Virus record (IMG/VR): IMGVR_UViG_3300036822_000287 | Coordinates: 1-53,686 of that record | Strand: one strand, 5' to 3' | Source: a virus | Taxonomy: Duplodnaviria > Caudoviricetes | Length of the DNA stretch: 53,686 bases | The notes under the pieces: generated by a model | Told to the model about the DNA's origin: nothing | Seen by the model: the letters and a program-made list of their open reading frames with translations, nothing else | The model's database searches: none | Position numbers and translations under genes: made by a program | In this document: positions 2,108-20,510 of the stretch, in pieces | Numbering within the stretch: the first letter of the stretch is position 1 | Layout of the letters: every line of letters starts with the position of its first letter

Positions 2108-2120
2108 AGTTTATTCATAA

Positions 2121-2158
2121 TAAAAGGGCCAGAGTAAATTCTGGCCATTTTATTTTTT
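2121..2158 (+). terminator. Rho-independent terminator of the fimbrial operon
   Basis: GGCCAGA/TCTGGCC stem followed by a T-rich tract. Confidence 0.7.
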
Positions 2159-2561
2159 ACCTTAGAAGTTTGTACCCGATGCTTATTTTCTTAACGCATG
2201 GTAGTTTGATGCTCCCACTTGTTCAAAATATTATTTTTCTGGAAAACCATTTGTATAATGGGGTTAGGGCTTTTTACAGAGATTTTGATTTGGTGGGTTA
2301 CTGAACCTGCTTTTGTGTAATTTGTATTGGTGTTTTCTAGAAAACTTCAAGTTTTATCAGATTACCAAAAGAGATGTTCTGTGAAGAGTGATTGTTGCTG
2401 GGTAAGGTCAATTTGGTTGCCTAAACCGACTTGTCTAAGACGCTCGGAGTTATCAAAAATGAAGTGAAAATGCTGTTCTGGTTATCCGGGAGCGGTCTGT
2501 TGTCTCAGGAACTGTAAGTATCCCAGCTTTAGTTTTATGCACTTTTGAGAGTTCCGGCTTT

Positions 2562-3030
2562 TGACCTTGGTCCGAAATCAAAGCAGTGCTAAATTAGAGA
2601 TCTTCGTCCTTTTGCAGGCTCCGGATAAACTCAGCCGGAATCATGTCATTTAATGATGTATGCGTTCTCTCATGATTTTATTTCCTGCGCCAGTTGTCGA
2701 GTTTGTCTTGCGCATCTTCCAGTGGGGGAACCAGTGAAAGTTCTGGCATTCATCCCGCAGACTACCTTTAAATGATTCAATCAACGGGTTATCTGCCGGC
2801 TTTCCGGGGCGAGAGAAGTCCATCGTCATTCCATTTTCATACGCCCATTTATCCAAACTCTTTGAGATAAATTCACTGCCGTTATCTGTCTGAATACGCA
2901 CTGGCTGGCGTTGAATCAGTACCCGTAATTATTCCATCACACCGACTACATCCTCGCCTTTAAGTGATTTTCCGGCGTGCATCGGCAGGCACCCACGACT
3001 AAAATTATCCACTACAGTTGCCTGAACACC
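2562..3030 (-). mobile_element. Degenerate IS3-family (IS407-like) transposase remnant
   Basis: IQTDNGSEFISK..WAY..DFSRPGKP.DN..IESF.GSLRDEC integrase-core motif with frameshifts and stops; probable terminal repeat TGACCTTGGTCC at 2562. Confidence 0.85.
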
Positions 3031-3436
3031 GAAAAAGAAGTGGCATAGTGTGACTTTTATACAAAAAGCGAAAAATACCGTGAAAAACATCGCCAAACAT
3101 TGGTCAATTTGCATTCCATTTTACAGTCATGTCGACGAGATAACGTGTTAGCTAATATTTCATATTAGCTAACGTTTTATTTATTAAAAAATGCACGAGA
3201 GATTCAGGTTTTTCAGCATCATTGTGACCTGAGCGCTCTTATACTATTGCATTCTAAATATTACATCCAACTTTTACTGATTTATTTTTTTCCGCAGAAT
3301 TCGTCAGGGTTTATAATTAAAATGCTTTCTATTGGTTTCTGTTTTTTTCATTGTTTATCACATTGTAACTTTATTTTTACTTATTATGACTCAACGAATC
3401 GATAATTAACGCTCGTAAAATAGAGAGGATTGAGAA

Positions 3437-4363
3437 ATGACTGATGGTATTCGCCCTGATGGCGCAATATTTGCTTCTAAGGCCCCTGTAGGCGAAATAG
3501 AGGATTTTCCCTCTATAAACCGTGGCTGGGGCGTCACTTTTGATGGGAATGATGAAAATGGAGACACTGTCGCCAGTGCGACCAACGGGATCCCGCCGAT
3601 GGAGTGGGATAACGGGCAGCGTAATAAGGTGGACAATAATATCTGGTGGCTTATGCAGCATGCAATTCCTGACTGGTCTGAAGGTACATGGGCCGCAGGT
3701 GCATTTGTTCGATATAACAGTTGGGTCTATTTTAATTCAGCAGATATATCAACCTCGGATAGTCCTGATGAAGGGGGGTGGAGCCCTGTCTTGCCACTAA
3801 ACGGTACCGACGGTTACCTCCAAATCAAAAGCAACCTGTCTGAAATTGCTAATGCCGGAGCCGAAGCACAATCAGCTGCACGTCTCAATCTTGGCATTGA
3901 TACGTTGACTATTATGCAAATGATATATCCGATTGGGGCTGTTATACATAACACTGGAAAGAATCCTTCAGAATATCTTGGGTTTGGAGACTGGACTCAG
4001 CGTGCGGGGAGTATTTATGGTTCAGGTAATGTTACAGACTCTAATGGCGTAGTTCAGGCGCTTGAAGGAGGGGCGATTGCTGGCAACTGGCGCATTCTTC
4101 ACTCTCAAATACAAACTCAAGCTTATAGCTTTACAACTTCGGATGATGCACATAGCCATACTTATAACCAATTTTTAATTGATGGGCATAATGGCACTGA
4201 CAGTAACGATAACAATTATCAAAATGTTCTGAATCCCAGAACGTCAAGTACCGTAACATCATCAGATACTCACAATCATACCGGGAGCATCAGTGTTGGT
4301 GGAAATTTGTCCAACTATTACCAGCCAGGTTATGTTTTCGCCGTATGGGAGCGAATTGCTTGA
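3437..4363 (+). CDS. Tail fibre protein, paralog of 14616..15584
   Basis: N-terminal half collinear with the operon fibre (31 identical aa); YPIGAV..NP..YLGFG.W motif, HxH motifs, C-terminal WERIA. Confidence 0.85.
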   Translation: MTDGIRPDGAIFASKAPVGEIEDFPSINRGWGVTFDGNDENGDTVASATNGIPPMEWDNGQRNKVDNNIWWLMQHAIPDWSEGTWAAGAFVRYNSWVYFNSADISTSDSPDEGGWSPVLPLNGTDGYLQIKSNLSEIANAGAEAQSAARLNLGIDTLTIMQMIYPIGAVIHNTGKNPSEYLGFGDWTQRAGSIYGSGNVTDSNGVVQALEGGAIAGNWRILHSQIQTQAYSFTTSDDAHSHTYNQFLIDGHNGTDSNDNNYQNVLNPRTSSTVTSSDTHNHTGSISVGGNLSNYYQPGYVFAVWERIA

Positions 4364-4489
4364 GTTATGTTATTAATTGGCTTGTTTAATTTCGCGGTTT
4401 CTTGAAAGGTGCTTTTGAAACTCCAGACTGGAGTATTGTGCATAGATAGGTATTACAGTCCTCACTACCAGGCCTTTTCGAAGGCCCCC

Positions 4490-4600
4490 GGAGTGACGCC
4501 ACAAATATTCTCGTGGCGAGCGATATCCCAGAGCACTGTGCGGATGTCATTCGTTGTAGTGCTCGAACGCCGCCGAAAGGTTCTTTCCCGCTGTTACGCG
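4490..4600 (-). mobile_element. IS2-like (IS3 family) OrfB C-terminal remnant
   Basis: Minus-strand translation [27 protein letters not shown] matches the IS2 OrfB C-terminus, with an internal stop. Confidence 0.8.
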
Positions 4601-4938
4601 GTACTGACAGGCAACCATTGGGTGTCATTTCTGTTTCGAATCGGAGATATTAACTATGCTAAATGCAGTTTACTTCCTGATTTAATGCAAACTGTAAACC
4701 TGCGGGATTATTACAGTGATTGACATTAACGAGGGGTAATACTAAGTGTCAACTTAAATGCACTGGAAAATAGTATGATTTAATTTTAAATAAACAATCG
4801 ATTGATCGGGAAATTCCAAAGGCGTAATTTAAATTGCATTGTAAAGACTAATATTTTTACTAGTACACATCATGAAGTTTTTTAAATGGATAATCATTCC
4901 CTTAGTTGTCCTGAAACTGGTGGCGGTATGAGGTATAT

Positions 4939-5325
4939 ATGAGTGACATTACTATTGAGAACTTTCGAGTTCGTTTTCCAGAGTTCGATGATATTTCTGA
5001 TGAGCGTATTCAACTCGCGCTTGATGATACCCTCCCCTATGTTCCAGAAACCCAATTTGGCGACTTCTACGAGCAGGCTTACTACCACCTCACAGCTGTA
5101 TTTCTGACTGGAATGATTACAACCTCTGGACGTGATGGTACCGGGACGGGGTGCACGGCAGGTGCGTTACCGGTGATATCTCAGCAGGCCGGGAGTGTAA
5201 CACTTCAAACATCTGAACCTTTCTCTGTAAATGATTCCTGTTTTGATACCTGGCTTTCGCTTACTGTTTATGGTCAGAGATTTCTTGCTGCACGTGAACA
5301 GGCATTGGCAGTTAACGGCTCATAA
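4939..5325 (+). CDS. Head-tail adaptor-like protein (DUF4054 family)
   Basis: FRVRFPEF..ISDERIQ..L N-terminus, AGSVT, and WLSLTVYGQRF C-terminal motif; GAGG RBS. Confidence 0.75.
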   Translation: MSDITIENFRVRFPEFDDISDERIQLALDDTLPYVPETQFGDFYEQAYYHLTAVFLTGMITTSGRDGTGTGCTAGALPVISQQAGSVTLQTSEPFSVNDSCFDTWLSLTVYGQRFLAAREQALAVNGS

Positions 5326-5376
5326 TTAACATCTGGCTTTGCTGAATTTTTATTTTTCAGAAATACAGGCGGCACC

Positions 5377-5730
5377 ATGATTATTAATCTAAATCCTGTT
5401 GTGAGTGGTTTATTAAGCCAGCCTTTTACGGTTTCGCATCCCGTTGAAAATGACTGGTCTGAATCAAGAGATGAAATAGCCTGTGTTGGTATTATTTCTA
5501 CTGGTCAACCTGACAATGCGCAATTTCTACCAGAAGGTACTCGTCTCCACAATTCCATCGAAATATATTCAGCGTCTGCTGTGAATTTTGGTGATGTGGT
5601 CAATTACCGCAATCAGTCCTTTAAAACCGTTCACTGTCAGGATCACACCGATTATGGCTATCACTACGCTCTCGCGGTTCTCATTAACGAGCCTGCAAAC
5701 CCTGCTGGAACAGGCTTTATCGACGTCTGA
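5377..5730 (+). CDS. Head-closure/stopper-like neck protein
   Basis: 117 aa, QFLPEGTR..SIEIYS and DYGY..A motifs, position after DUF4054. Confidence 0.6.
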   Translation: MIINLNPVVSGLLSQPFTVSHPVENDWSESRDEIACVGIISTGQPDNAQFLPEGTRLHNSIEIYSASAVNFGDVVNYRNQSFKTVHCQDHTDYGYHYALAVLINEPANPAGTGFIDV

Positions 5731-6187
5731 GCAATCGATTGTATTTCATCTGGCAGAGGCCGGAGATGCAGTGACGGCGGGACCATTTATGACCCTGTCA
5801 CTGAATAATGTAAAAAACCCGGGGATTTCGCAGCGTATTCAGGTGGATGACCTCAGTGAGGAAATTCATCAGCCCTGCCTCGGACAGTGCGTTATTCAGG
5901 CTTTTGGCAGCGGCGCATTTGCCCAACTCTCACGGTTAAGTGCCTGGACTGCATCAAGTGCAGGTGGTGAGGCGTTACGAAGCATCGGTGTTACCTGTCT
6001 CCTGGTCAGTGATATTGCGAACACCTCTGCTCCTGTTGCCAGTGGGTATGAAGAGCGCGCCACGATAAGTCTGGCACTGGCCTGGACCGATATTTATCAG
6101 ATTGAACAAACAACTATCAGTGAAGTGCCAATCACCGTACTGGCTGATAACCCTGCAGTACAAATCGATATCGTTGTTACCAAATAA
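5654..6187 (+). CDS. Tail terminator/neck protein
   Basis: Likely ATG at 5654 overlapping the upstream gene; IQAFG..A and YEERA motifs; directly before the sheath. Confidence 0.6.
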   Translation: MAITTLSRFSLTSLQTLLEQALSTSEQSIVFHLAEAGDAVTAGPFMTLSLNNVKNPGISQRIQVDDLSEEIHQPCLGQCVIQAFGSGAFAQLSRLSAWTASSAGGEALRSIGVTCLLVSDIANTSAPVASGYEERATISLALAWTDIYQIEQTTISEVPITVLADNPAVQIDIVVTK

Positions 6188-6197
6188 GAGGATTACT

Positions 6198-7331
6198 ATG
6201 AGTCTGTCACTGGACAATGTCATCAGTGTGACGGTGAACCCACCGGCTGATGTCGTCTCTACCGCTGATTTTGGCACTGTCGTTATTTTTTCACCGGATA
6301 TTTTTATTGCAGCCCTGGATACCCAGGCGTACCTCCAGTATTCGAGCCTGGTTGCCTTCCAGCAGGACTTTCCCCAGGACTCTACACCGGACAGCCTGAC
6401 GCAGACGGTTGAGTATTTCTTCTCACAACCTAAGCGTCCGTCGAAGCTCTATCTTGCACCATGGAATGTTGAGGACAACCAGACACTGGCGGATGCCTAC
6501 GCCACGCTCTCCTCCAGTTGGGATGGCTGGTATTGCGCCGTTCCGGTAGGACATGTCGCCGAGCCTGAAGAACTGCTGGAGGCCGCACAATGGATCCAGG
6601 CAGCATCCAAAATCCAGGCAATCAGCGATGGTGCGGCGAGTGACACGACCCCGTCGACCAGTACTCTAAAACCGCTTATTGATGCCGAATTGTACCGTTC
6701 TCTCGTGCTGTGGTCTTCGGCGTTAACGGATGCAGGCTCTTCCCCGGTAATTTCCGCTGCTGCGTTACTGTGCTCTATCAATTTTAATGCACCAAACAGT
6801 ATGCTGACCCTGAAGTTTAAAGATTTGCCCGGCGTGACGACAGATGACGCTATTACTGACACCATCGCTGATTCGTTAACTCAACAGGGAGTTAACTATT
6901 TCACCACGTTTGGCACTAAGCGCATGCTGGCAGAAGGCTGGATGCTTGGGGCAACAATGTGGGCCGATGAGGTGATTGGCCTTGACTGGCTGCGCAGCGA
7001 ACTGCAGACCAGTGTGTTTAACGGACTTTCAACCCTGGACCGCATCCCACTCAGCGATCAGGGCGTGGCGACAGTGATGAACTATGTCGATACCGCAATG
7101 CGAAAAGCCTTACGCAATGGCCTGATTGGTCCGGGAGTATGGGAAGGAAATGCGGTGGGTGCGCTGAATACTGGCGATTATCTGGAGAACGGCTATTACA
7201 TCTACGCCGACTCAGTCTCCACGCTTTCTGAAGACGATCGCAAGAACCGTAAATGCCCACCAATTACTGTCTGCGCACATATCGCTGGCGCTATACACAG
7301 CGTAGTCATCAACGTTAACACGTCTCGCTAA
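6198..7331 (+). CDS. Contractile tail sheath protein (DUF3383 family), compact 377 aa
   Basis: ATG at 6198 after GAGG; YFFSQ..RP, TLKFK.LPGV, WADEVIGLDWL, GYYIY, R.CPPI..AGAIH motifs. Confidence 0.88.
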   Translation: MSLSLDNVISVTVNPPADVVSTADFGTVVIFSPDIFIAALDTQAYLQYSSLVAFQQDFPQDSTPDSLTQTVEYFFSQPKRPSKLYLAPWNVEDNQTLADAYATLSSSWDGWYCAVPVGHVAEPEELLEAAQWIQAASKIQAISDGAASDTTPSTSTLKPLIDAELYRSLVLWSSALTDAGSSPVISAAALLCSINFNAPNSMLTLKFKDLPGVTTDDAITDTIADSLTQQGVNYFTTFGTKRMLAEGWMLGATMWADEVIGLDWLRSELQTSVFNGLSTLDRIPLSDQGVATVMNYVDTAMRKALRNGLIGPGVWEGNAVGALNTGDYLENGYYIYADSVSTLSEDDRKNRKCPPITVCAHIAGAIHSVVINVNTSR

Positions 7332-7341
7332 GGGGAATTCC

Positions 7342-7776
7342 GTGGCTTATTTCGATATCAAACAGGTCAACCTCAGCCTGAACACGCGCGCTATTACCGG
7401 CCTTACCACCGACAACGATGCCATCTCATTAAAATCCACGAAAGATGCTGGCGCATGGACGCTGGGTGCAAGTGGAAGTGGGGTATGGACTGCAAATTCG
7501 GATACCTCAGGCACACTGACGCTAAAACTGGTGCAAAACCACCCGGATAATGCCTGGCTTAGCCAGCAATTCGCCCTGCAGCGCAATGACCTGCGGGCAT
7601 TCACGCCGTTTGCGCTCGTGATCCGTGATTTGCTAAACAACGATTTGGTGATGGCCAGTAACGGCATGTTCTCTACACCGTTGACCTTTACCCGCGGAGC
7701 ACAGCCGAACGTCAGCCTCTGGACCATCGCTTTCGAATCCGTCCAGTTGACGCTGGCACCAGGCTACGGGAACTGA
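7342..7776 (+). CDS. Tail tube protein (DUF3277-like)
   Basis: 144 aa directly after the sheath; GA.G.GVW and SGTLTLKL.Q motifs. Confidence 0.8.
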   Translation: MAYFDIKQVNLSLNTRAITGLTTDNDAISLKSTKDAGAWTLGASGSGVWTANSDTSGTLTLKLVQNHPDNAWLSQQFALQRNDLRAFTPFALVIRDLLNNDLVMASNGMFSTPLTFTRGAQPNVSLWTIAFESVQLTLAPGYGN

Positions 7777-7782
7777 TAACCG

Positions 7783-8268
7783 ATGGAAGCGCAGAAAACT
7801 CTGATTCTCGACGGCGTAAGCTACATCATGAGCCCGGCCAATGCGTTCAGTGCGTGGGAAAACCTGCAGAAGCTGCTGGGAGCGATTGGTCGTTCGAAGA
7901 TGGATCACCCGGGGGATGGTTCAATGGCAAGTGCTATTGGCCTTGCATTCTCTGTGATGGATACGCACGAGCTAACGAACATTCAGCGAATGGTGTTCGA
8001 CTACACCGTTGTGAAACCTGTCGAGGGCAATCCTTTCAAACTCAGCGATGGCGCCGAGACGCATTTTAATCAGTATCGCGCTCATCTGCCGACGCTGTTA
8101 GTGGAGGGGGTTATCTACCAGTTCGAGGATTTTTTTACTGGTATCCGCGACGTACTGACCGGTTTGTTTCCGGGCATGACGGAGATGCTGCGCTTCCTGG
8201 AGCAGGCCCGGAAAATGGTCACGACGCCATTATCACCCACAGCTCCGGGAGTGGAGACGACGGCGTAG
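7783..8268 (+). CDS. Tail assembly chaperone (gpG equivalent)
   Basis: Between tube and tape measure; HFNQYR.HL..L..EG..YQF.DFF motif with slippery T7 at 8130-8136. Confidence 0.8.
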   Translation: MEAQKTLILDGVSYIMSPANAFSAWENLQKLLGAIGRSKMDHPGDGSMASAIGLAFSVMDTHELTNIQRMVFDYTVVKPVEGNPFKLSDGAETHFNQYRAHLPTLLVEGVIYQFEDFFTGIRDVLTGLFPGMTEMLRFLEQARKMVTTPLSPTAPGVETTA

Positions 8269-8420
8269 ACTGGTTTATCTGGACGCCGGTTACCCGGCGT
8301 TTTTGTACGCTGCATGAGCTGCGTACTGTCTACAGTCTTGCCGATCTGATGGCCATGCATGATGCAATCCATGCAATGAATCAGCATGCTCTTGCCAGCC
8401 AGACTGGTGAGAAAGGCTGA
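8130..8420 (+). CDS. -1 frameshift extension of the chaperone (gpT equivalent, DUF6889-like)
   Basis: -1 frame is open from 8070 to TGA 8418-8420, has no plausible early start codon, and encodes VDWFIWTPV..FCTLHELRTVYSLADL..MH. Confidence 0.72.
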   Translation, partial: FFYWYPRRTDRFVSGHDGDAALPGAGPENGHDAIITHSSGSGDDGVDWFIWTPVTRRFCTLHELRTVYSLADLMAMHDAIHAMNQHALASQTGEKG

Positions 8421-8450
8421 GAATGTGTTGTTACGCATTCAGGGGAAAGA

Positions 8451-9752
8451 ATGGTTATTGATGAATTTCTTCAGGCTCTTGGCGTGGAAAGTCTGCCTAC
8501 AGATTTTCAGTCATTAGATGCTTCTGTTGTGCAAAACAGTACAGCCCTGCTGGATGTAGCCAGTCTGTGTGCCGGGCTGTCAGATGCGCTGAATCAGGCT
8601 CAACAGAGTGTCAGTTTCTTCGGCACACAAACCGTTACGCTGGCAACGTTAATGCAGCAAGCGGCTGAGAGCGGAATATCAACGCTGCAAAATGAGCCGA
8701 TACAGACGGTTCTCGCTCAGGTTCAGCCTGGGGCTTCCGGCACATCAACCCTGGCAGCAACTCCTGCTTCGCCATCCCTGTTCACATCAGCCTCCGCGGC
8801 GTTTGGTGATCTGGATGACCAGTCGGTACGTCTGGCTCAAAGCTGGCAGGCATTTTTGCAGAACCAGGACGTCGGGGCTTTTGCACAGTCGCTGAGCGAT
8901 ATCGGCAGCGCGGTAGCAGGCGATGCCGATCAACTGACAAGTGCGAAACAGGAAGTCATGGACTTCTTTAACAGCATCAATGACGGAATTGCGTTTTTCG
9001 AAGAGTTACAGACTGTCATTACTGCTGTGGGTGAGGCCGAAGGTTTTGCCGCCACGATGGGAGAGTTGATGGCGTTGCCCTTCACCGCAATTGCAGCCGC
9101 TATTGTGGCCGTCGGTGCCGCGCTGGTTTATGCCTATCAGCAATACCAGGCGTTCAAACAGGGGGCCACTGATGGCCTGTTATACGACGTTTTCACCGGG
9201 TTCAGTGAATTACTGGTTAGTATTAGTGGCCTCTGGCGCTATGTGATGGACGAAGCCATTGAGAGTCTGCTCAAAATCAAATCAAATCTGCCAGGCTTTG
9301 CAGGCGGCGGTCTGAGTGATGAAGAGCAGGTGAGACTGACCCAATTGCAAAAACAGACCGCAAAAGGGTTGTCAGGTTATCAGAATACGGCTGTCACTCA
9401 GTATAAAAATGAGCGCCATGCCATTGAGGCCAAAGCCCGTGAGCAGAAAGCCAAAACACCCGCACCGCAACCTGCTCCTGCGCTTTCAGCGCTGCTCCCT
9501 TCACCCAATGCACTTTCTAACATTCCCGCGCACGGTGCGCTGACGCATCGCTCCCCAATGGCGGCAGCTTCGGTGGGACCATCAGGCGTGGAGCCTTCCG
9601 GCAGCACTCAGTTCTATATCGACACCCTCAATGTGACGGCAGATTCACCAGCTGAACTGGCCAGCAGCGTCGCACAGGAAGCCGATGTCGTTCATTCCCG
9701 GCATGTCTCTACCATGCTGAATTATTCCCGTGGGAAAGGAGTCAGACCATGA
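8451..9752 (+). CDS. Tape measure protein (short, 433 aa)
   Basis: MVIDEFL..LG N-terminus, A/Q/S-rich helical body with a hydrophobic segment, position after the chaperones. Confidence 0.75.
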   Translation: MVIDEFLQALGVESLPTDFQSLDASVVQNSTALLDVASLCAGLSDALNQAQQSVSFFGTQTVTLATLMQQAAESGISTLQNEPIQTVLAQVQPGASGTSTLAATPASPSLFTSASAAFGDLDDQSVRLAQSWQAFLQNQDVGAFAQSLSDIGSAVAGDADQLTSAKQEVMDFFNSINDGIAFFEELQTVITAVGEAEGFAATMGELMALPFTAIAAAIVAVGAALVYAYQQYQAFKQGATDGLLYDVFTGFSELLVSISGLWRYVMDEAIESLLKIKSNLPGFAGGGLSDEEQVRLTQLQKQTAKGLSGYQNTAVTQYKNERHAIEAKAREQKAKTPAPQPAPALSALLPSPNALSNIPAHGALTHRSPMAAASVGPSGVEPSGSTQFYIDTLNVTADSPAELASSVAQEADVVHSRHVSTMLNYSRGKGVRP

Positions 9753-10543
9753 CTGAACAGGCCTTCATCTGGACGGAGACTGGCAGCACGTTTGCGCTGG
9801 ATGCCACGACCACAGAAAATCATGCCCGAACCTCACAAACGACGAGTAACCCCGTAGAGAGTGGCGCGGTGATTTCCGACCACACGATTATTGCACCCGC
9901 AACACTGACGCTGACTGGCGTGATGGTTGACGTCAATTCTGCGAAACCGCCACTGGAGAAACTGACGGGCGTGCTTCAGGCATTCATCGATAATCCGAAT
10001 TTCATTGATGATATCTCCATCCCCGGGACTCTGAAAAACATCACCGACCAGACCGTGGAATTCGTCGATCGCTCCATTGACCTGATTGCGACGACCATCT
10101 CCAGTCTTGTTGATGGCGTGAGCAGTGAGCAACGGGCCCTGGCGCCCTGGATCCCCACACTGTTCCCCTCCGATGCAGTCGATTTCAGTGACGGAAAGCT
10201 GCGGATTGCGCAGGCCTATGATCAGCTGTTTGCGATTCAGAAGTCAGGGTTGCCTGTCTCGGTGGTGACCTCTACGGCGCTTTACAGCAACATGATCATT
10301 ACCAGCGTCAAGGTCGATATTGATGCCTCTAAAGGGAATTTCGCCGTGTTTACCCTGGCGTTTCAGGAAGTTTTGATCGTAGATACGCAAAACACGAGTA
10401 TGACCAACACTCAGCATTCACAGCTCATTGGTACCTGTAGCGGCAGAACGGCTGCACAGACGGCAGCGCCACGCAATGCCGGGGAAGTAACGCCAACCAC
10501 CGTCAGTGAGTCTGATGCTGCTAAGTGGGGAGAAGTGTTATGA
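9749..10543 (+). CDS. Baseplate/tube-initiator (Dit-like) protein
   Basis: LDAT..E.H..T.NPVESGA.ISDH motif; Y.NMIITS and F.EV.IV motifs; ATGA-coupled to the tape measure gene. Confidence 0.75.
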   Translation: MTEQAFIWTETGSTFALDATTTENHARTSQTTSNPVESGAVISDHTIIAPATLTLTGVMVDVNSAKPPLEKLTGVLQAFIDNPNFIDDISIPGTLKNITDQTVEFVDRSIDLIATTISSLVDGVSSEQRALAPWIPTLFPSDAVDFSDGKLRIAQAYDQLFAIQKSGLPVSVVTSTALYSNMIITSVKVDIDASKGNFAVFTLAFQEVLIVDTQNTSMTNTQHSQLIGTCSGRTAAQTAAPRNAGEVTPTTVSESDAAKWGEVL

Positions 10544-10854
10544 ACATCTGGAAAATTCCGGTAAACAGTTCCCCCCGCCAGAGCATGCGCTTTCAGGTCG
10601 GCGACCTGCACGTAGGGCTTACGCTGTACTACAACCCGGTACCGGACGGTGGCACATGGGTGATGGATTTAATCGATGCCGACAGCAATGACGTTCTGGT
10701 GAGTGGATATAGTCTGGTCTGTGGTGTCCCTATTCTTAAACGCACCACGCTGCCGTTCTGGTTTCGTCTTGTAGATATCAGCGGACTGCATCTGAACCCC
10801 TATAACGGCAATGATCTGGGCACCCGCTGTCTGCTCTATGTCGTGGAGAAATAA
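10540..10854 (+). CDS. Small baseplate protein
   Basis: ATGA overlap at 10540; IPV..P.QS, W.MDL, LVCGVPIL and DLGTRC.LY motifs. Confidence 0.7.
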   Translation: MNIWKIPVNSSPRQSMRFQVGDLHVGLTLYYNPVPDGGTWVMDLIDADSNDVLVSGYSLVCGVPILKRTTLPFWFRLVDISGLHLNPYNGNDLGTRCLLYVVEK

Positions 10855-10855
10855 G

Positions 10856-11803
10856 ATGCGGGAATATGGACGTCAGTATGTACTGCAGATTGGTGAAGAT
10901 GGTGATGCCTTGATCATCAATAATCTGCGCATCAACTTTTCCTTCAGCCACACACACGACAAGACGGCGAATACCGGCACCATTAAGGTGTACAACCTCA
11001 GTCGGGATACCATAAATCAGATCCAGACAGGCAAAGCTGACCGCTACCACCAGGTCACATTGTCGGTGGGTTACGGCGATCTGAACGATGTGCGAACGCT
11101 GTTTACCGGACAGCTGAGCAATGCAGTGGTCAACAAGGGAGGCTCCGCTACACAGACATCTACTCCTGCGACCGGACAAACGACCAAAGCCGGCGCAAGC
11201 ACGTCAGGCGCTGAAGTGGATTCCATACTGGAATTGACCTGCGACGACGGCGGTGTGGCATCGCGTAACGCCATGATGAACACCTCCTTTGCTGCAGGCA
11301 GTTCTCATGCTGAGCTGGTGAAAGCCTGCGCATCAACAATGACGGGTGTGATCCCCGGACTGGTGGGAATTGCCAGCAATCTGGTGCTGACCCGGGGTCG
11401 CGTCTGCTATGGCATGACGCGCCATATCCTGACGCAAATTGCCAGTCATCATGACGCAGACTGGTCCATTCAGCATGGCTATCTGATGATTATGGCATCT
11501 GATTATGTTCGCCCGGAGTCGGCCGTGGTGCTGAGCCAGCAAACGGGCATGATTGGCGCGCCCAAAAAATCGGGAGACAAGGTGACGGTGACCTGCCTGT
11601 TACGCCCGGAGATTCTGATTCACTCGAAAGTCCGGATAGATTCCATCAATGACAGCTTTGATGGGGAGTACAAAGTAGTGGATATAAAATCAGAAGGCGA
11701 TACGCACGCTAATTCCTGGAAAAGCACGCTGGAGCTGAAACTCCCTGAAAGTGGTGCGTTTAAATCCGCTACCAAGGCCAATTCCGCCGGAGGAAAAGCA
11801 TGA
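10856..11803 (+). CDS. Baseplate hub protein
   Basis: N.G.IKVYNLS, LSVGY, WSIQ.G.L, TGMIG.P and CLL.P.I motifs. Confidence 0.78.
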   Translation: MREYGRQYVLQIGEDGDALIINNLRINFSFSHTHDKTANTGTIKVYNLSRDTINQIQTGKADRYHQVTLSVGYGDLNDVRTLFTGQLSNAVVNKGGSATQTSTPATGQTTKAGASTSGAEVDSILELTCDDGGVASRNAMMNTSFAAGSSHAELVKACASTMTGVIPGLVGIASNLVLTRGRVCYGMTRHILTQIASHHDADWSIQHGYLMIMASDYVRPESAVVLSQQTGMIGAPKKSGDKVTVTCLLRPEILIHSKVRIDSINDSFDGEYKVVDIKSEGDTHANSWKSTLELKLPESGAFKSATKANSAGGKA

Positions 11804-12540
11804 TCTACCCACGAGAAAATACCTCCCTGGAAGGCATCATTAATAACGCGCTCGCCGATCACGCAACCCATTTTCGCGTGGCAGTACCTGGCATTATTGA
11901 CAGTTTTGATGCTGTTAAACAAACAGCCACCGTAATTGTGGCGTGCTCCGGCAGTGACAGCGATGGCAGTGAAATGCGCCTGCCGCCGTTGCTCGACGTA
12001 CCAGTAAGCTTCCCTCGTGGTGGTGGATTTGCCGTCACTTTTCCGGTTGTACCGGGTGATGAAGGCCTGCTTGTCTTTTCCGATCGCTGCATTGATGGCT
12101 GGCATCAAAACGGCAAGCCGGGTATTCCGCCGGACTATCGTCTGCATGATTTGAGTGATGCCAGTTTTATTCCGGGTATAAGTTCGCTGGGACGCGTCAT
12201 TTCTGAACACCGCACTGACGCGATTATGTTGCGCCAGCTCGACGGGAACGGCTATGTGTCCATTGACACTGACGGCAATGTCGATATCGATGGGGCAATA
12301 CTGCGGGTGCATTGTCCGGTTGAATTTATGCAATCCGTCACGATGGATGACACGCTGAATGTCGCTAAAACCCTGACTTACCAGGGGGGTATGAGCGGCA
12401 GCGGTGGTGATGGTGTTGTGGCTTCCTTCAATGGTGCTATCACCGTGAACGGGGATGCCATTATCAGCAATATCAGCTACGGCGGCCACACCCATCAGGA
12501 ACATGGGGATGGCGGCGGGATCACAGGAGGACCGCAATGA
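11800..12540 (+). CDS. Baseplate spike (Gp138/gpV-like membrane-piercing spike)
   Basis: LP.L.DVPV.FP.GGG..TFPV.PGDEGL.VF.DRCID.W and R.HDLSDA motifs; C-terminal HTH (HxH) metal site. Confidence 0.85.
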   Translation: MIYPRENTSLEGIINNALADHATHFRVAVPGIIDSFDAVKQTATVIVACSGSDSDGSEMRLPPLLDVPVSFPRGGGFAVTFPVVPGDEGLLVFSDRCIDGWHQNGKPGIPPDYRLHDLSDASFIPGISSLGRVISEHRTDAIMLRQLDGNGYVSIDTDGNVDIDGAILRVHCPVEFMQSVTMDDTLNVAKTLTYQGGMSGSGGDGVVASFNGAITVNGDAIISNISYGGHTHQEHGDGGGITGGPQ

Positions 12541-12884
12541 GAACCCGGAGAATCAATGACAATAATGACTGGCTTTTCGGCGCCGGTCGCCAGAGTTATC
12601 TCTCTGGCTCTGACGCGGTGGCACAGAAGGTGTTAACCCGACTTCAGTCATTTAAAGGAAACTGGTTTTTAAATCTCGACGCCGGTATCAACTGGGTTGC
12701 TGAGATGGAACAACGCGGTCAGCAACCTTTACTGGAAGCCAGTGTAAAAACAACCATTCTGAATACCCGGGGCGTGGTATCGCTTAATACCTTCAGTCCG
12801 TCATGGGACGCCCGCAACCGGAAATTAACCATCACTGCCAGCTACACCGATATCTACGGTGTTACAAATGAGGTCACGGTGTAA
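12537..12884 (+). CDS. Baseplate wedge / sheath initiator (gp25/gp46-like)
   Basis: MR.RR...DW.FG.G, AQ.V.TRL..F.G.WFL..GI.W and DIYG motifs. Confidence 0.78.
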   Translation: MRTRRINDNNDWLFGAGRQSYLSGSDAVAQKVLTRLQSFKGNWFLNLDAGINWVAEMEQRGQQPLLEASVKTTILNTRGVVSLNTFSPSWDARNRKLTITASYTDIYGVTNEVTV

Positions 12885-14035
12885 TGGGACAGTTAACCCC
12901 TCAGGGCTATGTAGCCGATACGTTTAATGACATCTTCAACCAGTTTATTACCGGCCTGAAAGGTATCTATGGCGATGATATCCTGGTCGATCCGGACGAC
13001 CCGGATGGACAACTTGCCGGTATCCTGGCACAAATGCGTGCCGATATCGAAGGCACAATTCTGGCAATTTATCAGGCAAACGATCCGGATAATGCTACGG
13101 GAGCGTGGCTTGAGCAGAAAGTCGCTTATGCCGGGCTTGAACGCCGTGCCGCTCAGTATTCCTACCTTCGCGATGTTGCGTTGACCGGATCGGCCGGGGT
13201 GCTGATTAAATCGGGCGCTATTGTCCGTGATGACAGCGGTGTCCAGTGGATAAGTCAGACCGATGTGACGCTTGATGATGACGGAAATGGCGTTCAGGAT
13301 TTTCGCTCGCAGTCACTCGGGCAATATCAGGTGGCCGCCCATATTTCACTGACTATCATGACGGTAGTCGCGGGCTGGCAGACAGCGGCCACACAATACT
13401 CGTCAGAGACCGGGCTCGAAGAGGAAACTGACCCCCAGCTTCTGGCTCGCTTTTACCGTTCGCGCAGCAAACCCGCTGTGAACTGTGTGGATGGTACGGT
13501 GGCGGATATTTATGCTCTGCCAGATGTCAGTGAAGTGGTGTCCCTCGAAAACAGCAGCGACGAAGTCGATGGCAATGGCGTGAATGCACATACGGTCAAT
13601 TATGTTGTTGATGGCGGCGATAATTCTCAGATTGCGAAAGCCATATACCGCAACTGGCCGGGAACAGGCCTGCAGGGCGATATTTCTGTGCCGGTGACTC
13701 GCTACAGTGGCAATACCGTCGATATTCAGTTTGACCGGCCCACCCCCGTGGATGTGTCCACGGAGATAACTGTTGGCCGACGTAAGAATTTCACGTATGT
13801 CGACACCACCCAGATAATCGCTCAGGTGATGAGTATGCAGTTCTCTATTGGTGAATCCGTTTATCAGGCGGATATTTCAGATGTCGTGAATCAGACCTCC
13901 GGTGTGTATGTGAAATCGATTTTACTGGGGCGTGACGGTGATGAGCTGGCTGACATCGACGTACTGAAGATGACTGCCCGCGAAAAGGCCCGTTTCCTTA
14001 GTGGCAATGTCACTGTGACCGTGGTGGACGAATGA
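12884..14035 (+). CDS. Baseplate J/gp47-like wedge protein
   Basis: IYG.DI..DPD..DGQ, DPD.A.G.WL, G.EEETD..L..R and F.RP motifs. Confidence 0.85.
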   Translation: MGQLTPQGYVADTFNDIFNQFITGLKGIYGDDILVDPDDPDGQLAGILAQMRADIEGTILAIYQANDPDNATGAWLEQKVAYAGLERRAAQYSYLRDVALTGSAGVLIKSGAIVRDDSGVQWISQTDVTLDDDGNGVQDFRSQSLGQYQVAAHISLTIMTVVAGWQTAATQYSSETGLEEETDPQLLARFYRSRSKPAVNCVDGTVADIYALPDVSEVVSLENSSDEVDGNGVNAHTVNYVVDGGDNSQIAKAIYRNWPGTGLQGDISVPVTRYSGNTVDIQFDRPTPVDVSTEITVGRRKNFTYVDTTQIIAQVMSMQFSIGESVYQADISDVVNQTSGVYVKSILLGRDGDELADIDVLKMTAREKARFLSGNVTVTVVDE

Positions 14036-14036
14036 T

Positions 14037-14612
14037 ATGGCTGAATATGCAGACCTTCTGATCGTCCAGTATGCCGGTAAGCCGAATGCTACCGCGACCA
14101 TCCGGTTGTTGAGCGAGCAGTGGACGCAGTCATTTGAGGGGGCCACCAGTATTCCGGAAATGCTCAATATCGATACTGCGGCAGGCGTGAACCTGAATAT
14201 CGTGGGGAAAATCGTAGGACAGGACCGCACGTTGCCCGCGGCTGTTCCCCGGGAGTTTTTTGCTTTTGAAGGCAACCTCACAACCAAAGGGTACCAGGCA
14301 AACGGACAAGGAGGGTCACCCTGGTACCGGAAAGGAGATGCCCTTGAAAGTTCTGGTGAACTCTCCGATTCGGAAATGCGCATTCTAATCAAAGCGCGAA
14401 CCATCAAAAACTTCAGCCGCTGCAGCATGGATGATGTCGAGCGTGCCTGTGAAGTGCTGTTTGGCAAGAATGGGTATCAGATAACGGTAACAGCCCCCTG
14501 CGTCTGGACCATTACCACACAGCGTGCAGACCCATTTGTGCTGTACGCCGCTCAGGAACTGGACGTTCTGCCCAGAGCTGCGGGCGTTCGCTATGAATTT
14601 ACAGAGGAGTAA
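14037..14612 (+). CDS. Baseplate wedge protein (DUF2612 family)
   Basis: Y.DLLI.QY..KP.A, NIDTA.G..L.IVGKIVG..R and LPR.AGV motifs. Confidence 0.82.
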   Translation: MAEYADLLIVQYAGKPNATATIRLLSEQWTQSFEGATSIPEMLNIDTAAGVNLNIVGKIVGQDRTLPAAVPREFFAFEGNLTTKGYQANGQGGSPWYRKGDALESSGELSDSEMRILIKARTIKNFSRCSMDDVERACEVLFGKNGYQITVTAPCVWTITTQRADPFVLYAAQELDVLPRAAGVRYEFTEE

Positions 14613-14615
14613 ACC

Positions 14616-15584
14616 ATGACTCAAGGTATCCGCCCGGACGGGCAAATTTTTGCTTCTGACGCCAGTGACGGTGAGCTGGAAGCCTTCCCGGCAACTGCTC
14701 GTGGCTGGGGTGTGACCGTCGATGGGAAAGATGAAGCTGGTAATAGTGTTGTTGAAGCCACCAATGGCATCCCACCGATGGAGTGGGATAACGGGCAACG
14801 TAATAAAGTGGACAATAATATCTGGTGGTTGATGCAGCATGCCATTCCGGAGTGGCAGGCTGGTAACTGGGATGCCGGTGCGTTTGTACGGTATAACTCT
14901 GTGGTGTATTACAACGCAACGGATGCGGAAATCTCAGGTGAGCCAGGGGACAGTGCTGACTGGACATCGATACTTCCATTGAATGGGGCTGATGGTCGTT
15001 ATTTGCAGGTGAATAACAACTTGTCGGAGATTGCGGCGAAGGGGGCTGATGCGCAAACTCAGGCCCGTATAAATCTTGGTTTGAATGATACAGATGCAAT
15101 CACAAAATTAATTTACCCTGTTGGTGCCGTAATAATGAATAAAGGGACTAATCCTGCAACATATTTAGGGTTTGGGACATGGACACAAAGGAGTGGCGCT
15201 ATTTATGGTGGCGGGAGCGTAACTGATTCCGATAGCAATATACAGACGTTTGCTACAGGGAGTGTCTCTGGTTATTTTAGAGCTCATCGCTCTCATTTAT
15301 ATAGCGACTCGATATCGGTGAGTGTTAGCGGTACCACTAATAGTACAGGGGGCCACTTACATGCTGCGCCAGTTGAGAAAGGAAATGGTCCAACTGCCTC
15401 TCAATCAATTGCAGGTAGTGCCTGGGGAGGATCGCGAGAAAATACGACAACTAATGCAGGGACATCCACTGATGGAGCGCATACACATACTGTTACAAGC
15501 TCCGGGTCTTTTTCCCTAGGCGCAAATACCAATAACTTTGTAACACCTGGTTATGCATTTTCTGTATGGGAACGGACGGCATAA
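14616..15584 (+). CDS. Tail fibre protein
   Basis: Last gene of the operon; RGWG..GIPPMEW.N baseplate-binding region, YPVGAV, HxH motifs, C-terminal WERTA. Confidence 0.85.
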   Translation: MTQGIRPDGQIFASDASDGELEAFPATARGWGVTVDGKDEAGNSVVEATNGIPPMEWDNGQRNKVDNNIWWLMQHAIPEWQAGNWDAGAFVRYNSVVYYNATDAEISGEPGDSADWTSILPLNGADGRYLQVNNNLSEIAAKGADAQTQARINLGLNDTDAITKLIYPVGAVIMNKGTNPATYLGFGTWTQRSGAIYGGGSVTDSDSNIQTFATGSVSGYFRAHRSHLYSDSISVSVSGTTNSTGGHLHAAPVEKGNGPTASQSIAGSAWGGSRENTTTNAGTSTDGAHTHTVTSSGSFSLGANTNNFVTPGYAFSVWERTA

Positions 15585-15689
15585 TAAAATTCATATCATC
15601 CAAATTGCTTGGAATGCTGTTAAACAACACATGAAGTTAAACATCATTCCACATAGGATACCCTCCCTCAGAACTGAACTCATCATAGC

Positions 15690-15720
15690 TGAACACTTTT
15701 AGATTTCTTAAAAGTGTTCA
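15690..15720. repeat. 12-bp inverted repeat downstream of the tail operon (possible terminator/operator)
   Basis: TGAACACTTTTA-N7-TAAAAGTGTTCA. Confidence 0.4.
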
Positions 15721-15787
15721 ATAACACTGTATAAAAATCATAATAAATGCCATAGTAGTATTAAATTTCTCTAATCAAATGAAAAAC

Positions 15788-16686
15788 ATGTTAATCTCTA
15801 AATTTCTGCATTGGGAAGAGTGTTCGTTAAAAAGTTATGGAACTGTTTGCCAGCTTTAAGGTTTTAATTGCGAATCATCTCCCGAATTCTTATCGTTTAT
15901 GATGCGCCATAATTCTCCTTTACGTTTTTTTGAATATAAAAGAAAAGGAAATATCCTTGGTGGGGTTTGCGTTGACCAAGGGTGGCTTGCAAATGATATA
16001 AAGAATAAAAATAGGTCTTTGCAGTCATTACCAATCCCAACAGCTTCAATCTACCTTCCTTTCGACATGAACTCGCCAGGGGAATCAATAATCCCATTTA
16101 AATCTAAATGCTTGCACCCACTTCAAAAAGACTTATTTGTAAACACTTCTTATAATTTATTTAGTAAGCGAAAAATTGGTTTGGTAAAATCTTTTCCTTC
16201 GGGCTTCTCCAAGAAAACAATATCTACTCGCGAAAGAGAAATTAGAAAGTTCCTTGCTGTTGGTGGAGCATTTGTTCCCATCAGTGATTTGGATAGTAAT
16301 TATTTCTTCGATATATATCGAGAGTTGTTTTTCGCTCGACGTAAACGAGAGATCATTGAACAAGATTTAAATAGGATTTTTTCAATGAGTTTCATCATTG
16401 TTTTAAAGGTGATGTTATTTTTTTAAATAATGAATCTATAGCGATCCAATTACTTCTTTCTGTATCTAGTCAAGCAGGTTACTTTGTGGATTTCATTAAT
16501 ATAGGCTACACACAAGAAAGCCCGCTAAATTCGTTGGGTACTATACTCATGTGGCGAAATCTAACTTCGCTGACAGCTGAAGCCGCTGAAAAAAATCAGA
16601 ATCTGTTCTACTCTTATGGATTTATGTCTGGGGAGTACAAAACTAGATGGTGTAACTCTTTATCTGTAGGGCGTGCTATATGTTGA
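15788..16686 (+). pseudogene. mig-14: Mig-14-family antimicrobial-peptide resistance protein, inactivated
   Basis: ATG 15788, in-frame TAA at 15857, frameshift in the T-run near 16380; KCLHP, DFINIGY..SLGTILMW.N and YK.RWC motifs. Confidence 0.75.
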
Positions 16687-16891
16687 TTACTCAATGTTAG
16701 GATAGTGCACTTGAGGTTGAGGCTGTATCCGTTGTACAACTTTGTTACACGTTTAAAACGCAGCGGCAGTCCTTACTTACCTTGGAGGTCGTAAATACGT
16801 ATATGGCTATAATGCGAGCTTTCTAACATAAGTGACTTCTTTTTCTAAATTCAATATGCTGTGATTCGAGTAATAAAAATCCTCTCTGAGA

Positions 16892-17160
16892 GGTATTCTT
16901 GAATAAATCATATTTGCAAAAAATTCTCGAAACAAGTTGGTACCAGTCGGGCGGTACGCATATTTTCAGACATATCAGTCTTCGTCATTTTATTCAGCGC
17001 AATCACCATGAGTCATAGCCTCCGCAACACGCAGTATCAATGAACATCCGAGTAACTGTTTTACCCGCACATCGCCGTTTCCACTATCGAGCCTGTCTAT
17101 TTCCACCACGCTTATTCCCGCTCAGCCGCTGATTAGCAACAGCACGGTTACGATCTATGT
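16892..17160 (-). mobile_element. IS903-like (IS5 family) 3' remnant
   Basis: Minus strand resembles the IS903 tnp 3' end (..CGTAACCGTGC..GCTAATCAGCG..GAAACGGCGATG..GTAAAACAG..GCGCTGAATAAAATGACGAA); degenerate IR TTGAATAAATCA near 16899. Confidence 0.75.
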
Positions 17161-17227
17161 ACCCACCCAGCCAGTACTCTGCCCCCTTTGGGCAGGTATG
17201 AGAGCACTGATTTACTTACTATTGAGA

Positions 17228-17371
17228 TGTGCGATCTTCTGCATGATGGGTTTTTTAGGAGGGATGTACTTAACGTAGTGATTTTTAAGGATATGCTTTA
17301 GTTTTGTTGCTTCTTTTCTTCTGCATGAAAATCACGTGATTTAATTCTTATTTGCACATTCTTTTGCATTG
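17228..17371 (+). repeat. Putative prophage left end with transposase-binding repeats
   Basis: TG at 17228; TCTTCTGCATGA at 17235-17246 and 17317-17328, variant TCTTTTGCATTG at 17360-17371. Confidence 0.6.
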
Positions 17372-17431
17372 CCCGGAGGTGTCAGCCAAAGAAATTACAG
17401 ATACAAGGGTACCACTATGCTCTACGGGAAG

Positions 17432-18055
17432 TTAGAGCATTTTTTTTACTGACTGATCGGTCAGAGGCACCGCACATTTGTCCCCTCTAAAGCTCTCACA
17501 AATCTCTCTCGTGCGTTGCGAGGGAAGTGATTTAAGTATAAGCGCTAACTCTTTGATTTCATGATTTAAGTTAAGTAATTCAATATTTTCTTCATCAGTA
17601 AGCTGCAATAACGTCTCAACCCCTTTTCTAATTAGGACATCGGCAACCGCTTCTTGATCGGATAAAGATAACCTCTGCAATAGCATCATTAGCATCTGAG
17701 ATGTGTTATTAGCTTCAATTGGTGCAGAGACCTTCTGTTCTACATCAGACGCCTCGATCTTTTGGTCGACATCTTTGTTCGATTCATCACTATCACCCGT
17801 CAGTAGCCATGTCATGGATACATTACAGGCATCTGCAACAGCTGCAAGATTGTCTATCCCTGGGTAGATTTTACCACTCAGATATTTACGAATAGTTGTC
17901 TCGGACAGGCCACTTCTTCGTGCAAGCTCAACATTACTCATCCCATTCATAGCGTCCTTTAGGCGCTCGCCAAAACGGATTATTGTGTCTCGTCCATTAA
18001 TCCGCTCCCCATCGCTTTTACTATCTTCGGATTTTTCCCCGTAACCATATGACAT
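17432..18055 (-). CDS. Phage repressor (XRE HTH)
   Basis: FGERLK..MS..ELARRSGLSETTIRKYLSG..P..L..A..VS..WL; divergent from ner; start at 18055 inferred. Confidence 0.85.
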   Translation of the reverse strand: MSYGYGEKSEDSKSDGERINGRDTIIRFGERLKDAMNGMSNVELARRSGLSETTIRKYLSGKIYPGIDNLAAVADACNVSMTWLLTGDSDESNKDVDQKIEASDVEQKVSAPIEANNTSQMLMMLLQRLSLSDQEAVADVLIRKGVETLLQLTDEENIELLNLNHEIKELALILKSLPSQRTREICESFRGDKCAVPLTDQSVKKML

Positions 18056-18117
18056 AAAAAGAGTTCCATTGGGATTCACACAAAACAAAAGGTCGAGCAA
18101 ATAATCCGATTTAAAAA

Positions 18118-18189
18118 TTGACATCGGATTATTGTTCGAATAAGCTTTTATCAAGTTCGATAAGCGAATGCGATTATCGAATTCGATAA
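18118..18189 (+). promoter_or_regulatory. Early promoter (Pe-like) with two operator palindromes
   Basis: TTGACA (18118)-17 bp-TAAGCT (18141); TTATCAAGTTCGATAA 18148-18163 and perfect TTATCGAATTCGATAA 18174-18189. Confidence 0.7.
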
Positions 18190-18207
18190 ACGATAAAGGA
18201 TCACATA

Positions 18208-18480
18208 ATGCAGATGACTACACAAGATCTAGCTGCGTTCTTCATTACTGAGGGCGAGGACTGGGAAGCTGGAGTTATTCATGCAGCCCTGAAACGTAAA
18301 GGCTGTACGATTTCCAGCCTTGAGCGTGAGCGTGGCCTGAAGCCCGGCGCTATGCGTAACGTCTTATATCGTCCTTGCGATGCGTACGAGAATGCAATTG
18401 CAGCCGTCATTGGTGTCGACCCGGCAGTTATCTGGCCAAGTCGATATCAGGATAAAAATACTCAGGTAGTGGCGGCTTAA
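18208..18480 (+). CDS. ner: Ner-like transcriptional regulator
   Basis: DW...I.AALK.KG..L...GL..E..IA..IGV.P..IWPSRY signature. Confidence 0.9.
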   Translation: MQMTTQDLAAFFITEGEDWEAGVIHAALKRKGCTISSLERERGLKPGAMRNVLYRPCDAYENAIAAVIGVDPAVIWPSRYQDKNTQVVAA

Positions 18481-18481
18481 G

Positions 18482-20476: not shown

Positions 20477-20510
20477 CACTTTTTAAACGTATTTATAAGA
20501 GGTTTTAAAA

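Follow-up and report, generated by a model that had tools for sequence, protein, structure and literature searches.

A head-less contractile-tail block occupies positions 4939-15584 on the + strand of a 53,686-b provirus record from a soil metagenome (IMG/VR record IMGVR_UViG_3300036822_000287). The whole record is referred to here as the window. Judged from its gene families and their order, the block derives from a temperate myophage like SEN34, of which it keeps the neck and the tail. A second head-less copy on another IMG/VR contig (L004) shares the same scarred upstream junction, and all 15 genes of the block are open in both copies and bear the mark of purifying selection since the head was lost. 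These comparisons support a domestication maintained by selection. We consider it about an even chance that the block encodes a selection-maintained, head-less contractile particle that acts like an R-type tailocin and depends on new or trans-acting functions for its expression and release.

The block consists of 15 intact, same-strand open reading frames (ORFs) that overlap or are 0-10 b apart, except for gaps of 51 b (5325-5377) and 182 b (8268-8451), the latter of which contains an alternative-frame extension of the tail assembly chaperone. Its G+C content is 52-54%, compared with 36-44% in the flanks. Families were assigned with Pfam at curated cut-offs and with PHROGs. Twelve of the 15 proteins score above the Pfam cut-offs (DUF4054, Phage_tail_terminator_9, DUF3383, KPP10_Orf10, Phage_TAC_9, Dit_like, Pam3_gp18, E217_GP41, the spike N-domain PF18352, Baseplate_J, DUF2612 and Gp10_C), and PHROGs places 14, including three that lack a Pfam assignment: the phrog_939 "head protein", the tape measure and a baseplate wedge. 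Hence 14 of the 15 genes belong, in order, to phage virion families, while the PHROG family of the chaperone is unannotated and its Pfam family is Phage_TAC_9. An earlier note on this DNA had proposed 15 tightly spaced, intact tail genes and a search with hidden Markov models to check their families; the ORFs bear out the former, and both Pfam and PHROGs agree with the tail-module assignments. The family called DUF3277 in that note is presumably KPP10_Orf10 in the copy of Pfam used here. The genes of the block are as follows.

4939-5325 (+), head-to-tail adaptor; Pfam DUF4054 (1.4e-15), PDB matches to E217 gp27 (8fvh) and XM1 gp1 (7kln), dN/dS 0.059 against L004
5377-5730 (+), collar/stopper (head-closure-like) neck protein; phrog_939, profile match to 7kjk (1.2e-4), 52% to the homologue in Lelliottia prophage L003
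5654-6187 (+), tail terminator (gateway); Phage_tail_terminator_9, phrog_6920/7975, start from tblastn
6195-7331 (+), minimal tail sheath of 378 aa; DUF3383 (3.4e-59), phrog_205, Pam3 sheath 8hdr (2.2e-21)
7342-7776 (+), tail tube; KPP10_Orf10, phrog_280, position after the sheath as in SEN34
7783-8420 (+), tail assembly chaperone with alternative-frame extension; Phage_TAC_9, three-frame translations
8451-9752 (+), short tape measure of 433 aa; phrog_1272/1533, position, weak match to the L003 tape measure
9749-10543 (+), Dit-like baseplate hub component; Dit_like (1.8e-28), phrog_817
10537-10854 (+), baseplate plug, Pam3 gp18-like; Pam3_gp18, phrog_349
10856-11803 (+), baseplate hub, E217 gp41-like; E217_GP41, phrog_196
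11800-12540 (+), central spike; PF18352 (5.3e-34), sub-threshold Apex motif
12537-12884 (+), small baseplate wedge, gpW/gp25-like; phrog_120 (9.8e-28)
12884-14035 (+), J-like baseplate wedge protein; Baseplate_J, phrog_6
14037-14612 (+), DUF2612 baseplate protein at the fibre socket position; DUF2612 (9.5e-35), phrog_587
14616-15584 (+), tail fibre of 322 aa with a Gp10_C distal domain; Gp10_C, PHROG fibre families

The start of the terminator at 5654 was taken from homologues, the ORF being open from 5588. The chaperone ORF spans 7783-8268, and the overlapping extension has an open frame that begins at 8103 or earlier and runs to about 8420. In L004 and L003 the extension is likewise open and its sequence conserved, which fits the product of a programmed frameshift. 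The structural set of a contractile tail is complete, with sheath, tube, chaperone, tape measure, hub, plug, spike, wedges, fibre and terminator all intact.

The origin of the block was traced through its sheath and its gene order. In a search of 50,697 phage records, 307 matched the sheath, all at below 60% identity (best 31.9%; SEN34, 31.5%), and no near-identical DNA turned up in the phage or Escherichia coli collections when the block and the two ends of the window were searched by megablast. The closest genomic relative that carries a head is prophage L003 of Lelliottia wanjuensis, with a sheath 66% identical to that of the block. Directly upstream of its tail, L003 encodes TerS, TerL, Phage_portal_3, Mu F, DUF2213 and Major_capside, and further upstream DnaB, NinG and a lambdoid-type Q antiterminator. 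L005 and L007 are phages of the same type, the sheaths of these nearest head-bearing relatives being 65-66% identical to that of the block. In L006, L008 and L009/L011 (one contig), with sheaths at 55-58%, the same tail is joined to a different head module: L008 has Terminase_6N, and a portal of the DUF4055 family, a Gp13-like capsid and a DnaT_2-type adaptor are found in both L006 and L008; in L009/L011, compared by tblastn only, the TerS, Neck1, neck and sheath matches are placed as in L008. Related tails are thus paired with at least two unrelated head modules, so head and tail modules are exchangeable in this group. In SEN34 the order is adaptor-like protein, Neck1, "head protein", terminator-position protein, sheath, tube, chaperone, tape measure, Dit-like protein, plug, hub, spike, wedges and DUF2612-position protein, preceded by terminase, portal, scaffold and capsid. 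The synteny with SEN34 (Brunovirus), together with a sheath of the DUF3383 family and other families that take their names from E217 and Pam3, agrees with the view of the earlier note that this lineage differs from those of P2 and Mu.

A full head module stands immediately upstream of the neck in all seven head-bearing relatives (L003, L005, L007, L006, L008, L009/L011 and SEN34). When 26 L003 proteins were used as tblastn queries, none of the eight head and packaging proteins matched anywhere in the window or L004, and 15 of the other 18, from adaptor to fibre, matched in order. Terminase_6C also had no match in the window or L004, and neither Pfam nor PHROGs found a replication, lysis or regulator gene among the 15 block proteins. 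These searches bear out the absence from the block of capsid, portal, terminase, integrase, replication, regulator and lysis genes that had been claimed for it. The genes that an intact prophage would have next to its tail genes, for an integrase or transposase, a repressor, replication, packaging, head and lysis, do not adjoin the block. In 2108-17431 neither a lysis cassette nor regulators were found, and neither tRNA genes nor Rfam families were found near the block. The sole protein with a PG_binding_1 domain, and thus a possible lysis function, seen in the window lies at 50836-51762.

The deletion itself is marked by remains of insertion sequences (ISs). The 13-kb contig L004 aligns by blastn to window positions 4321-16975, and both copies share the following features around the block.

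4376-4624 (-), stub of the 3' end of an IS3-family transposase, interrupted in frame by TGA; match to rve_3 at positions 42-67 of 67 (E 2e-07, 31.1 bits, TGA read as X)
4625-4938 (+), A+T-rich leader before the first gene; alignment with L004, promoter scan
15899-16686 (+), mig-14 homologue, right flank of both copies; Pfam Mig-14 match for each of the two pieces and for the L004 ORF
16879-17219 (strand not assigned), IS903B-like remnant; 69% to E. coli IS903B, about 4x depth in source run X1 (multi-copy)

On the left, homology with L004 begins inside the final 43 b of an upstream fibre gene and continues through the stub, which is about 90% identical in L004 and carries the same stop; on the right, it ends inside the IS903B-like remnant, at 16975. 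The last 150 b or so of the leader and its Shine-Dalgarno sequence are also conserved in L004. The mig-14 homologue is split in the window (15899-16426 and 16486-16686) and intact in L004 (302 aa, 11682-12590), with a synonymous divergence (dS) of 0.265. Because the stub with its in-frame stop and the mig-14 flank are common to both copies, their common ancestor was already head-less, and head loss plausibly came about by an IS-adjacent or IS-mediated deletion. The loss is not fresh, since the head-bearing relatives reach only 55-66% identity in the sheath; the near-identical genes inside a full prophage that, according to the earlier note, would point to a recent deletion were not found, the nearest head-bearing sheath being 65-66% identical. 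Such a shared IS scar provides a clean before-and-after marker for selection on a prophage fragment after head loss.

With that marker, the constraint on the tail genes since the deletion can be estimated. The flanks of the window and L004 are about 90-95% identical. In seven genes of low divergence (adaptor, collar, terminator, sheath, chaperone, DUF2612 and fibre; 1474 codons), nonsynonymous divergence (dN) is 0.023 and dS is 0.279, giving a dN/dS of 0.083 (bootstrap 0.063-0.110), and this dS resembles the 0.265 of the mig-14 flank. The sheath alone is 97% identical at the amino acid level, with a dN/dS of 0.039, and the other eight, high-divergence genes have a dN/dS of 0.124. When the observed numbers of substitutions were placed at random in 2000 simulations, the seven low-divergence genes were expected to acquire 10 stops and the full set of 15 genes 48; the real genes have none, and none of the 2000 simulations was free of stops. 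For the same two gene sets, the head-bearing L003 compared with L005/L007 gives dN/dS values of 0.073-0.085 and 0.132-0.136, so that no relaxation of constraint is visible in the head-less tail genes. Their intactness and dN/dS exclude random decay after the ancestral deletion. The synteny and dN/dS check that the earlier note had suggested thus yielded a head-less copy at the same junction and pooled dN/dS values of 0.08-0.12. Its description of the block as an independently domesticated contractile nanomachine, rather than random prophage decay, stands as far as selection since head loss and a second copy with the same IS-scarred junction are concerned; a tailocin function, like particle assembly, killing, regulation and release, we infer from the genes.

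Divergence between the two copies is mosaic. The tube is 73-81% identical at the nucleotide level and lies between a sheath and a chaperone at 90-97%, and the stretch 8521-11778 is 61-78% identical; dS exceeds 1 in the tube and in the segment from tape measure to J. The same mosaic separates L003 from L005/L007 (tube, about 11153-11584; tape measure to J, about 14166-20204 in L003), where synonymous divergence is saturated and the head proteins are 97-99% identical. Its presence in both the head-less pair and the head-bearing phages indicates that these segments have been exchanged by recombination within the phage family, and suggests that exchangeable "alleles" of the tube and inner baseplate circulate there.

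The first two genes of the block, for the adaptor and the collar/stopper, are connectors on the head side. The DUF4054 adaptor matches the structures of E217 gp27 and XM1 gp1, and in E217, according to the neck section of the E217 paper, the dodecameric adaptor inserts into the portal. The collar profile matches XM1 "Head completion protein" (7kjk, 1.2e-4) and, more weakly, head-closure/stopper chains. In comparison with L004, dN/dS is 0.170 for the collar and 0.12 for the three neck genes pooled. A phrog_222 Neck1 gene is present in the seven head-bearing relatives examined, between adaptor and collar in the SEN34-type order, and absent from the block and L004, its sole match in the window (30960-31184) being in an adjacent Mu-like element. 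We considered this absence as a second head-related deletion and rejected that idea. The same section of the E217 paper describes a natural neck of three proteins (adaptor, collar and gateway), and by homology the adaptor, collar and terminator of the block make up a complete neck of this E217 type; because such a neck is complete without Neck1, its lack need not be a second loss.

Based on these observations, we propose that the ancestor lost everything upstream of the adaptor gene, probably by an IS-mediated deletion, and that selection has since preserved the function of the 15-gene tail half in two or more diverged bacterial lineages. The block most likely still gives rise to head-less contractile particles. 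The tape measure and the frameshifted chaperone would set the length of a tube built on a baseplate of Dit, plug, hub, spike and wedges, the minimal DUF3383 sheath would polymerise around that tube, the terminator would cap it, and the Gp10_C fibres would bind the target cell. Transcription would need a new promoter within the A+T-rich leader, or read-through, and release would rely on lysis functions provided in trans, for instance by a co-resident prophage. Several points weigh against this proposal. There is no lysis or regulator gene in or beside the block, unlike at known tailocin loci. A promoter scan, which returned 16 sites, fewer than the 18.6 in shuffled sequences, found no consensus sigma-70 promoter upstream of it on the + strand (4226-5304), and a Q antiterminator of the L003 type, far upstream in that prophage, is gone here. 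The constrained, putatively portal-binding adaptor and the collar have no obvious role in a head-less particle. Part of the constraint measured in the mosaic segments was earned in working phages, and purifying selection on defective prophages, reportedly described by Bobay, Touchon and Rocha in 2014 (Bobay et al. 2014), is said to be common. Moreover, there are only two lineages, both from soil metagenomes: run X2 contains an L004-type contig of 12.7 kb that is probably from the same source as L004 and not independent, and run X3 contains low-depth window-type fragments. No RNA run is listed that contains the block.

Some of these points fit the main alternative, which we regard as unlikely, although it deserves serious weight, namely that the block is a defective remnant without function for the host, in which segments are continually overwritten with phage-selected sequence through homologous recombination with infecting or co-resident phages of the same family. 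Its genes would look intact and constrained for that reason, and it would serve as a reservoir of tail genes, with selection acting at the level of the phage. The mosaic shared with L003, L005 and L007 is what such overwriting would produce, dS is uneven even within the "low-divergence" set (0.02-0.43), and an adaptor that looks useless is as conserved as the sheath; the promoter, lysis gene and regulator not found and the IS-rich graveyard around the block point in the same direction. However, the pooled dS of the low-divergence genes matches that of the flanking host gene, as vertical descent predicts, at a dN/dS of 0.083 and with no stops where 10 were expected. The mig-14 homologue broke in one lineage, yet all 15 tail genes are unbroken in both, and the collections searched hold no near-identical donor phage, the closest head-bearing sheath being at 65-66%. 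The retained neck instead raises the question of whether the tails dock, through the adaptor, onto heads encoded elsewhere, as in a split prophage, a multi-locus particle like a gene transfer agent, or a supplier of tails to capsid-only elements. This we hold to be rather improbable. A complete E217-type neck, an adaptor dN/dS of 0.059 and the combination of related tails with at least two unrelated head modules all favour it, but no head gene of the matching type occurs in the 53.7 kb, the Mu-type heads belong to a neighbour with its own tail, Neck1, found in 7/7 head-bearing relatives, is missing from both head-less copies, and no packaging function is linked to the block. A particular form of this idea, a long shot in our estimation, is that the block is a chromosomal tail factory and not a weapon, its tails joining DNA-filled heads made by capsid-only satellites, by a head locus elsewhere or by incoming phages. 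Such a factory would be the mirror image of the capsid-forming satellites that borrow the tails of helper phages.

The block might also supply the tail of the Mu-like prophage beside it, or be part of one large composite provirus, since IMG/VR delimits a single "provirus" over both and the Mu-like late genes look scrambled. The chance of this is very small, and we rejected it: the Mu-type left end, with a repressor, a ner-like gene and transposase A/B at 17432-21404, leaves the block outside, with mig-14 and the IS903-like remnant between them, and the Mu-like element comes with a separate set of tail genes (tube, Baseplate_J, Tail_P2_I, fibre and tape measure). In addition, the L004 contig ends in the IS903-like remnant, before the Mu-type end, and a separate short contig of the same run goes into unlike sequence from about 17175-17189. 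An extracellular contractile injection system (Afp/PVC-like) or a device related to the type VI secretion system would also have a contractile sheath, tube, baseplate and spike but no head. With 14 of the 15 genes in phage virion families, a tape measure and fibres of phage type and a frameshifted chaperone present, and no AAA+ ATPase, cargo, effector or toxin, Afp-type sheath or tube paralog, TssB/C or ClpV among the 15 proteins, such a device is exceedingly improbable and was likewise rejected.

Among known systems, the SEN34 (Brunovirus)/L003-type myophages share with the block the gene order from adaptor to DUF2612 plus fibre and the same families; they differ in being complete phages with terminase, portal, MuF, scaffold, capsid, lambdoid early genes, a Q antiterminator and Neck1. 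E217 (Pbunavirus) and Pam3 resemble it in the adaptor (E217 gp27), in the hub and plug families named after E217 gp41 and Pam3 gp18, in the minimal sheath of Pam3 and in the E217 pattern of the neck, but they are distant lytic or cyanobacterial phages with heads, and the similarity is at the family level (E 1e-3 to 1e-21). The R-type tailocins (the P2-like R-pyocin, the Mu-like R-syringacin, the ENT90/P2-like pantailocins and carotovoricin) are, like the block, chromosomal contractile-tail sets without head or replication genes; in the pantailocin paper, one conserved locus with a divergence like that of its flanks is used as an argument of the same kind as ours. They descend from different phage ancestors, and the block, known here from its genes alone, has no lysis cassette or regulators. 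According to the R-syringacin and pantailocin papers, known tailocin loci keep lysis and regulator genes and R-syringacin retains only tail and regulatory genes, whereas the block retains head-side neck genes; the R-syringacin paper also describes an incomplete lysis set and considers lysis in trans from a resident prophage. A review and the same two papers describe tailocins as having arisen repeatedly from different phages. Rhizoviticin is F-type.

The tailocins studied so far are mainly P2-, Mu- and lambda-like, and a tail of the SEN34 lineage, if it proves to be one, would add an independent co-option. Domesticated defective prophages of the kind reportedly treated in that 2014 work resemble the block as vertically kept fragments with low dN/dS, but here a whole module (15/15 tail genes) with a defined ancestral deletion scar has been kept, not scattered genes. 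Our literature search found no paper that joins DUF3383 with tailocins, and one, on a lytic Pseudomonas phage, in which DUF4054 and DUF3383 occur together. The gene content therefore probably represents a new tailocin-like lineage, unusual in its lack of linked lysis and regulation, its retained neck and its minimal sheath. The smallest known sheath type combined with a short tape measure could recommend the block as a compact scaffold on which killing particles might be engineered. Key questions are how the block is expressed and its product released after loss of the Q-dependent late promoter and lysis genes, and why a portal-docking neck is conserved without a head.

Relatives of the block and of its host are sparsely represented. 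A scan of genome contigs for the sheath returned the Lelliottia prophage alone and a metagenome scan L011 alone; among 401 sampled genomes of the family to which Lelliottia belongs, there was one sheath match (the Lelliottia genome itself) and no adaptor match, while the Mig-14 anchor matched in 40 (best 59%). Closer clusters exist at the protein level, with sheaths at 88-92% (P0001-P0003, P0008) and adaptors at 80-81%. At the left end of the window, 300-2107 encodes a fimbrial subunit and a PapD-type chaperone, with no usher gene downstream, followed by an IS3-family remnant. Apart from itself, the best homologue of this chaperone among 5.8 billion proteins is 45% identical, which indicates a very poorly sampled host lineage. 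The cluster record of the chaperone points to a contig of about 205 kb. Two further features lie between these genes and the block.

2650-2901 (-), IS3-family rve remnant; decayed neighbour
3437-4363 (+), orphan tail-fibre paralog of 308 aa, intact, about 40% G+C; Gp10_C, PHROG tail-fibre families

The rve remnant at 2650-2901, the rve_3 stub at 4376-4624, the split mig-14 and the IS903B-like remnant match the decayed neighbourhood described earlier; the mig-14 neighbour has decayed in the window, and all 15 tail genes are intact. The first 113 or so residues of the orphan fibre resemble the block fibre, and the N-terminus of the L003 fibre is 57.5% identical. A direct repeat (3410-3709 and 14589-14888, 72%) includes about 27 b before the orphan fibre that resemble the 3' end of the DUF2612 gene, and L004 retains just the last 43 b of the orphan fibre. 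This gene, on which the earlier note is silent, may be left over from a second, tandem tail cluster, or it may be an alternative or spare receptor-binding fibre. In the leader, a 9-b palindrome lies at 4808-4821 and L004 has a different 10-b palindrome at the same place, either of which could be an operator, a hairpin or chance. L004 also carries a reversed IS903-like fragment at its positions 37-188, so that its tail block and mig-14 are bracketed by IS903-like fragments; the ends of L004 are not inverted repeats of each other, the reversed match being another such fragment.

The head genes of the window (capsid E, Mu portal and Mu F) are all in the Mu-like element, whose late genes (17432-51762) are ordered unlike those of Mu. 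Baseplate_J and a morphogenesis gene lie on the - strand at 27-31 kb, a gp27-like gene at 30.9 kb and the tube at 36.6 kb; capsid E (38.6 kb) precedes the portal (40.4 kb) and F (41.7 kb), and the tape measure (- strand, 44.9-47.2 kb) is followed by Tail_P2_I, fibre and assembly protein. This order may reflect a rearranged element, two elements or an assembly chimera.

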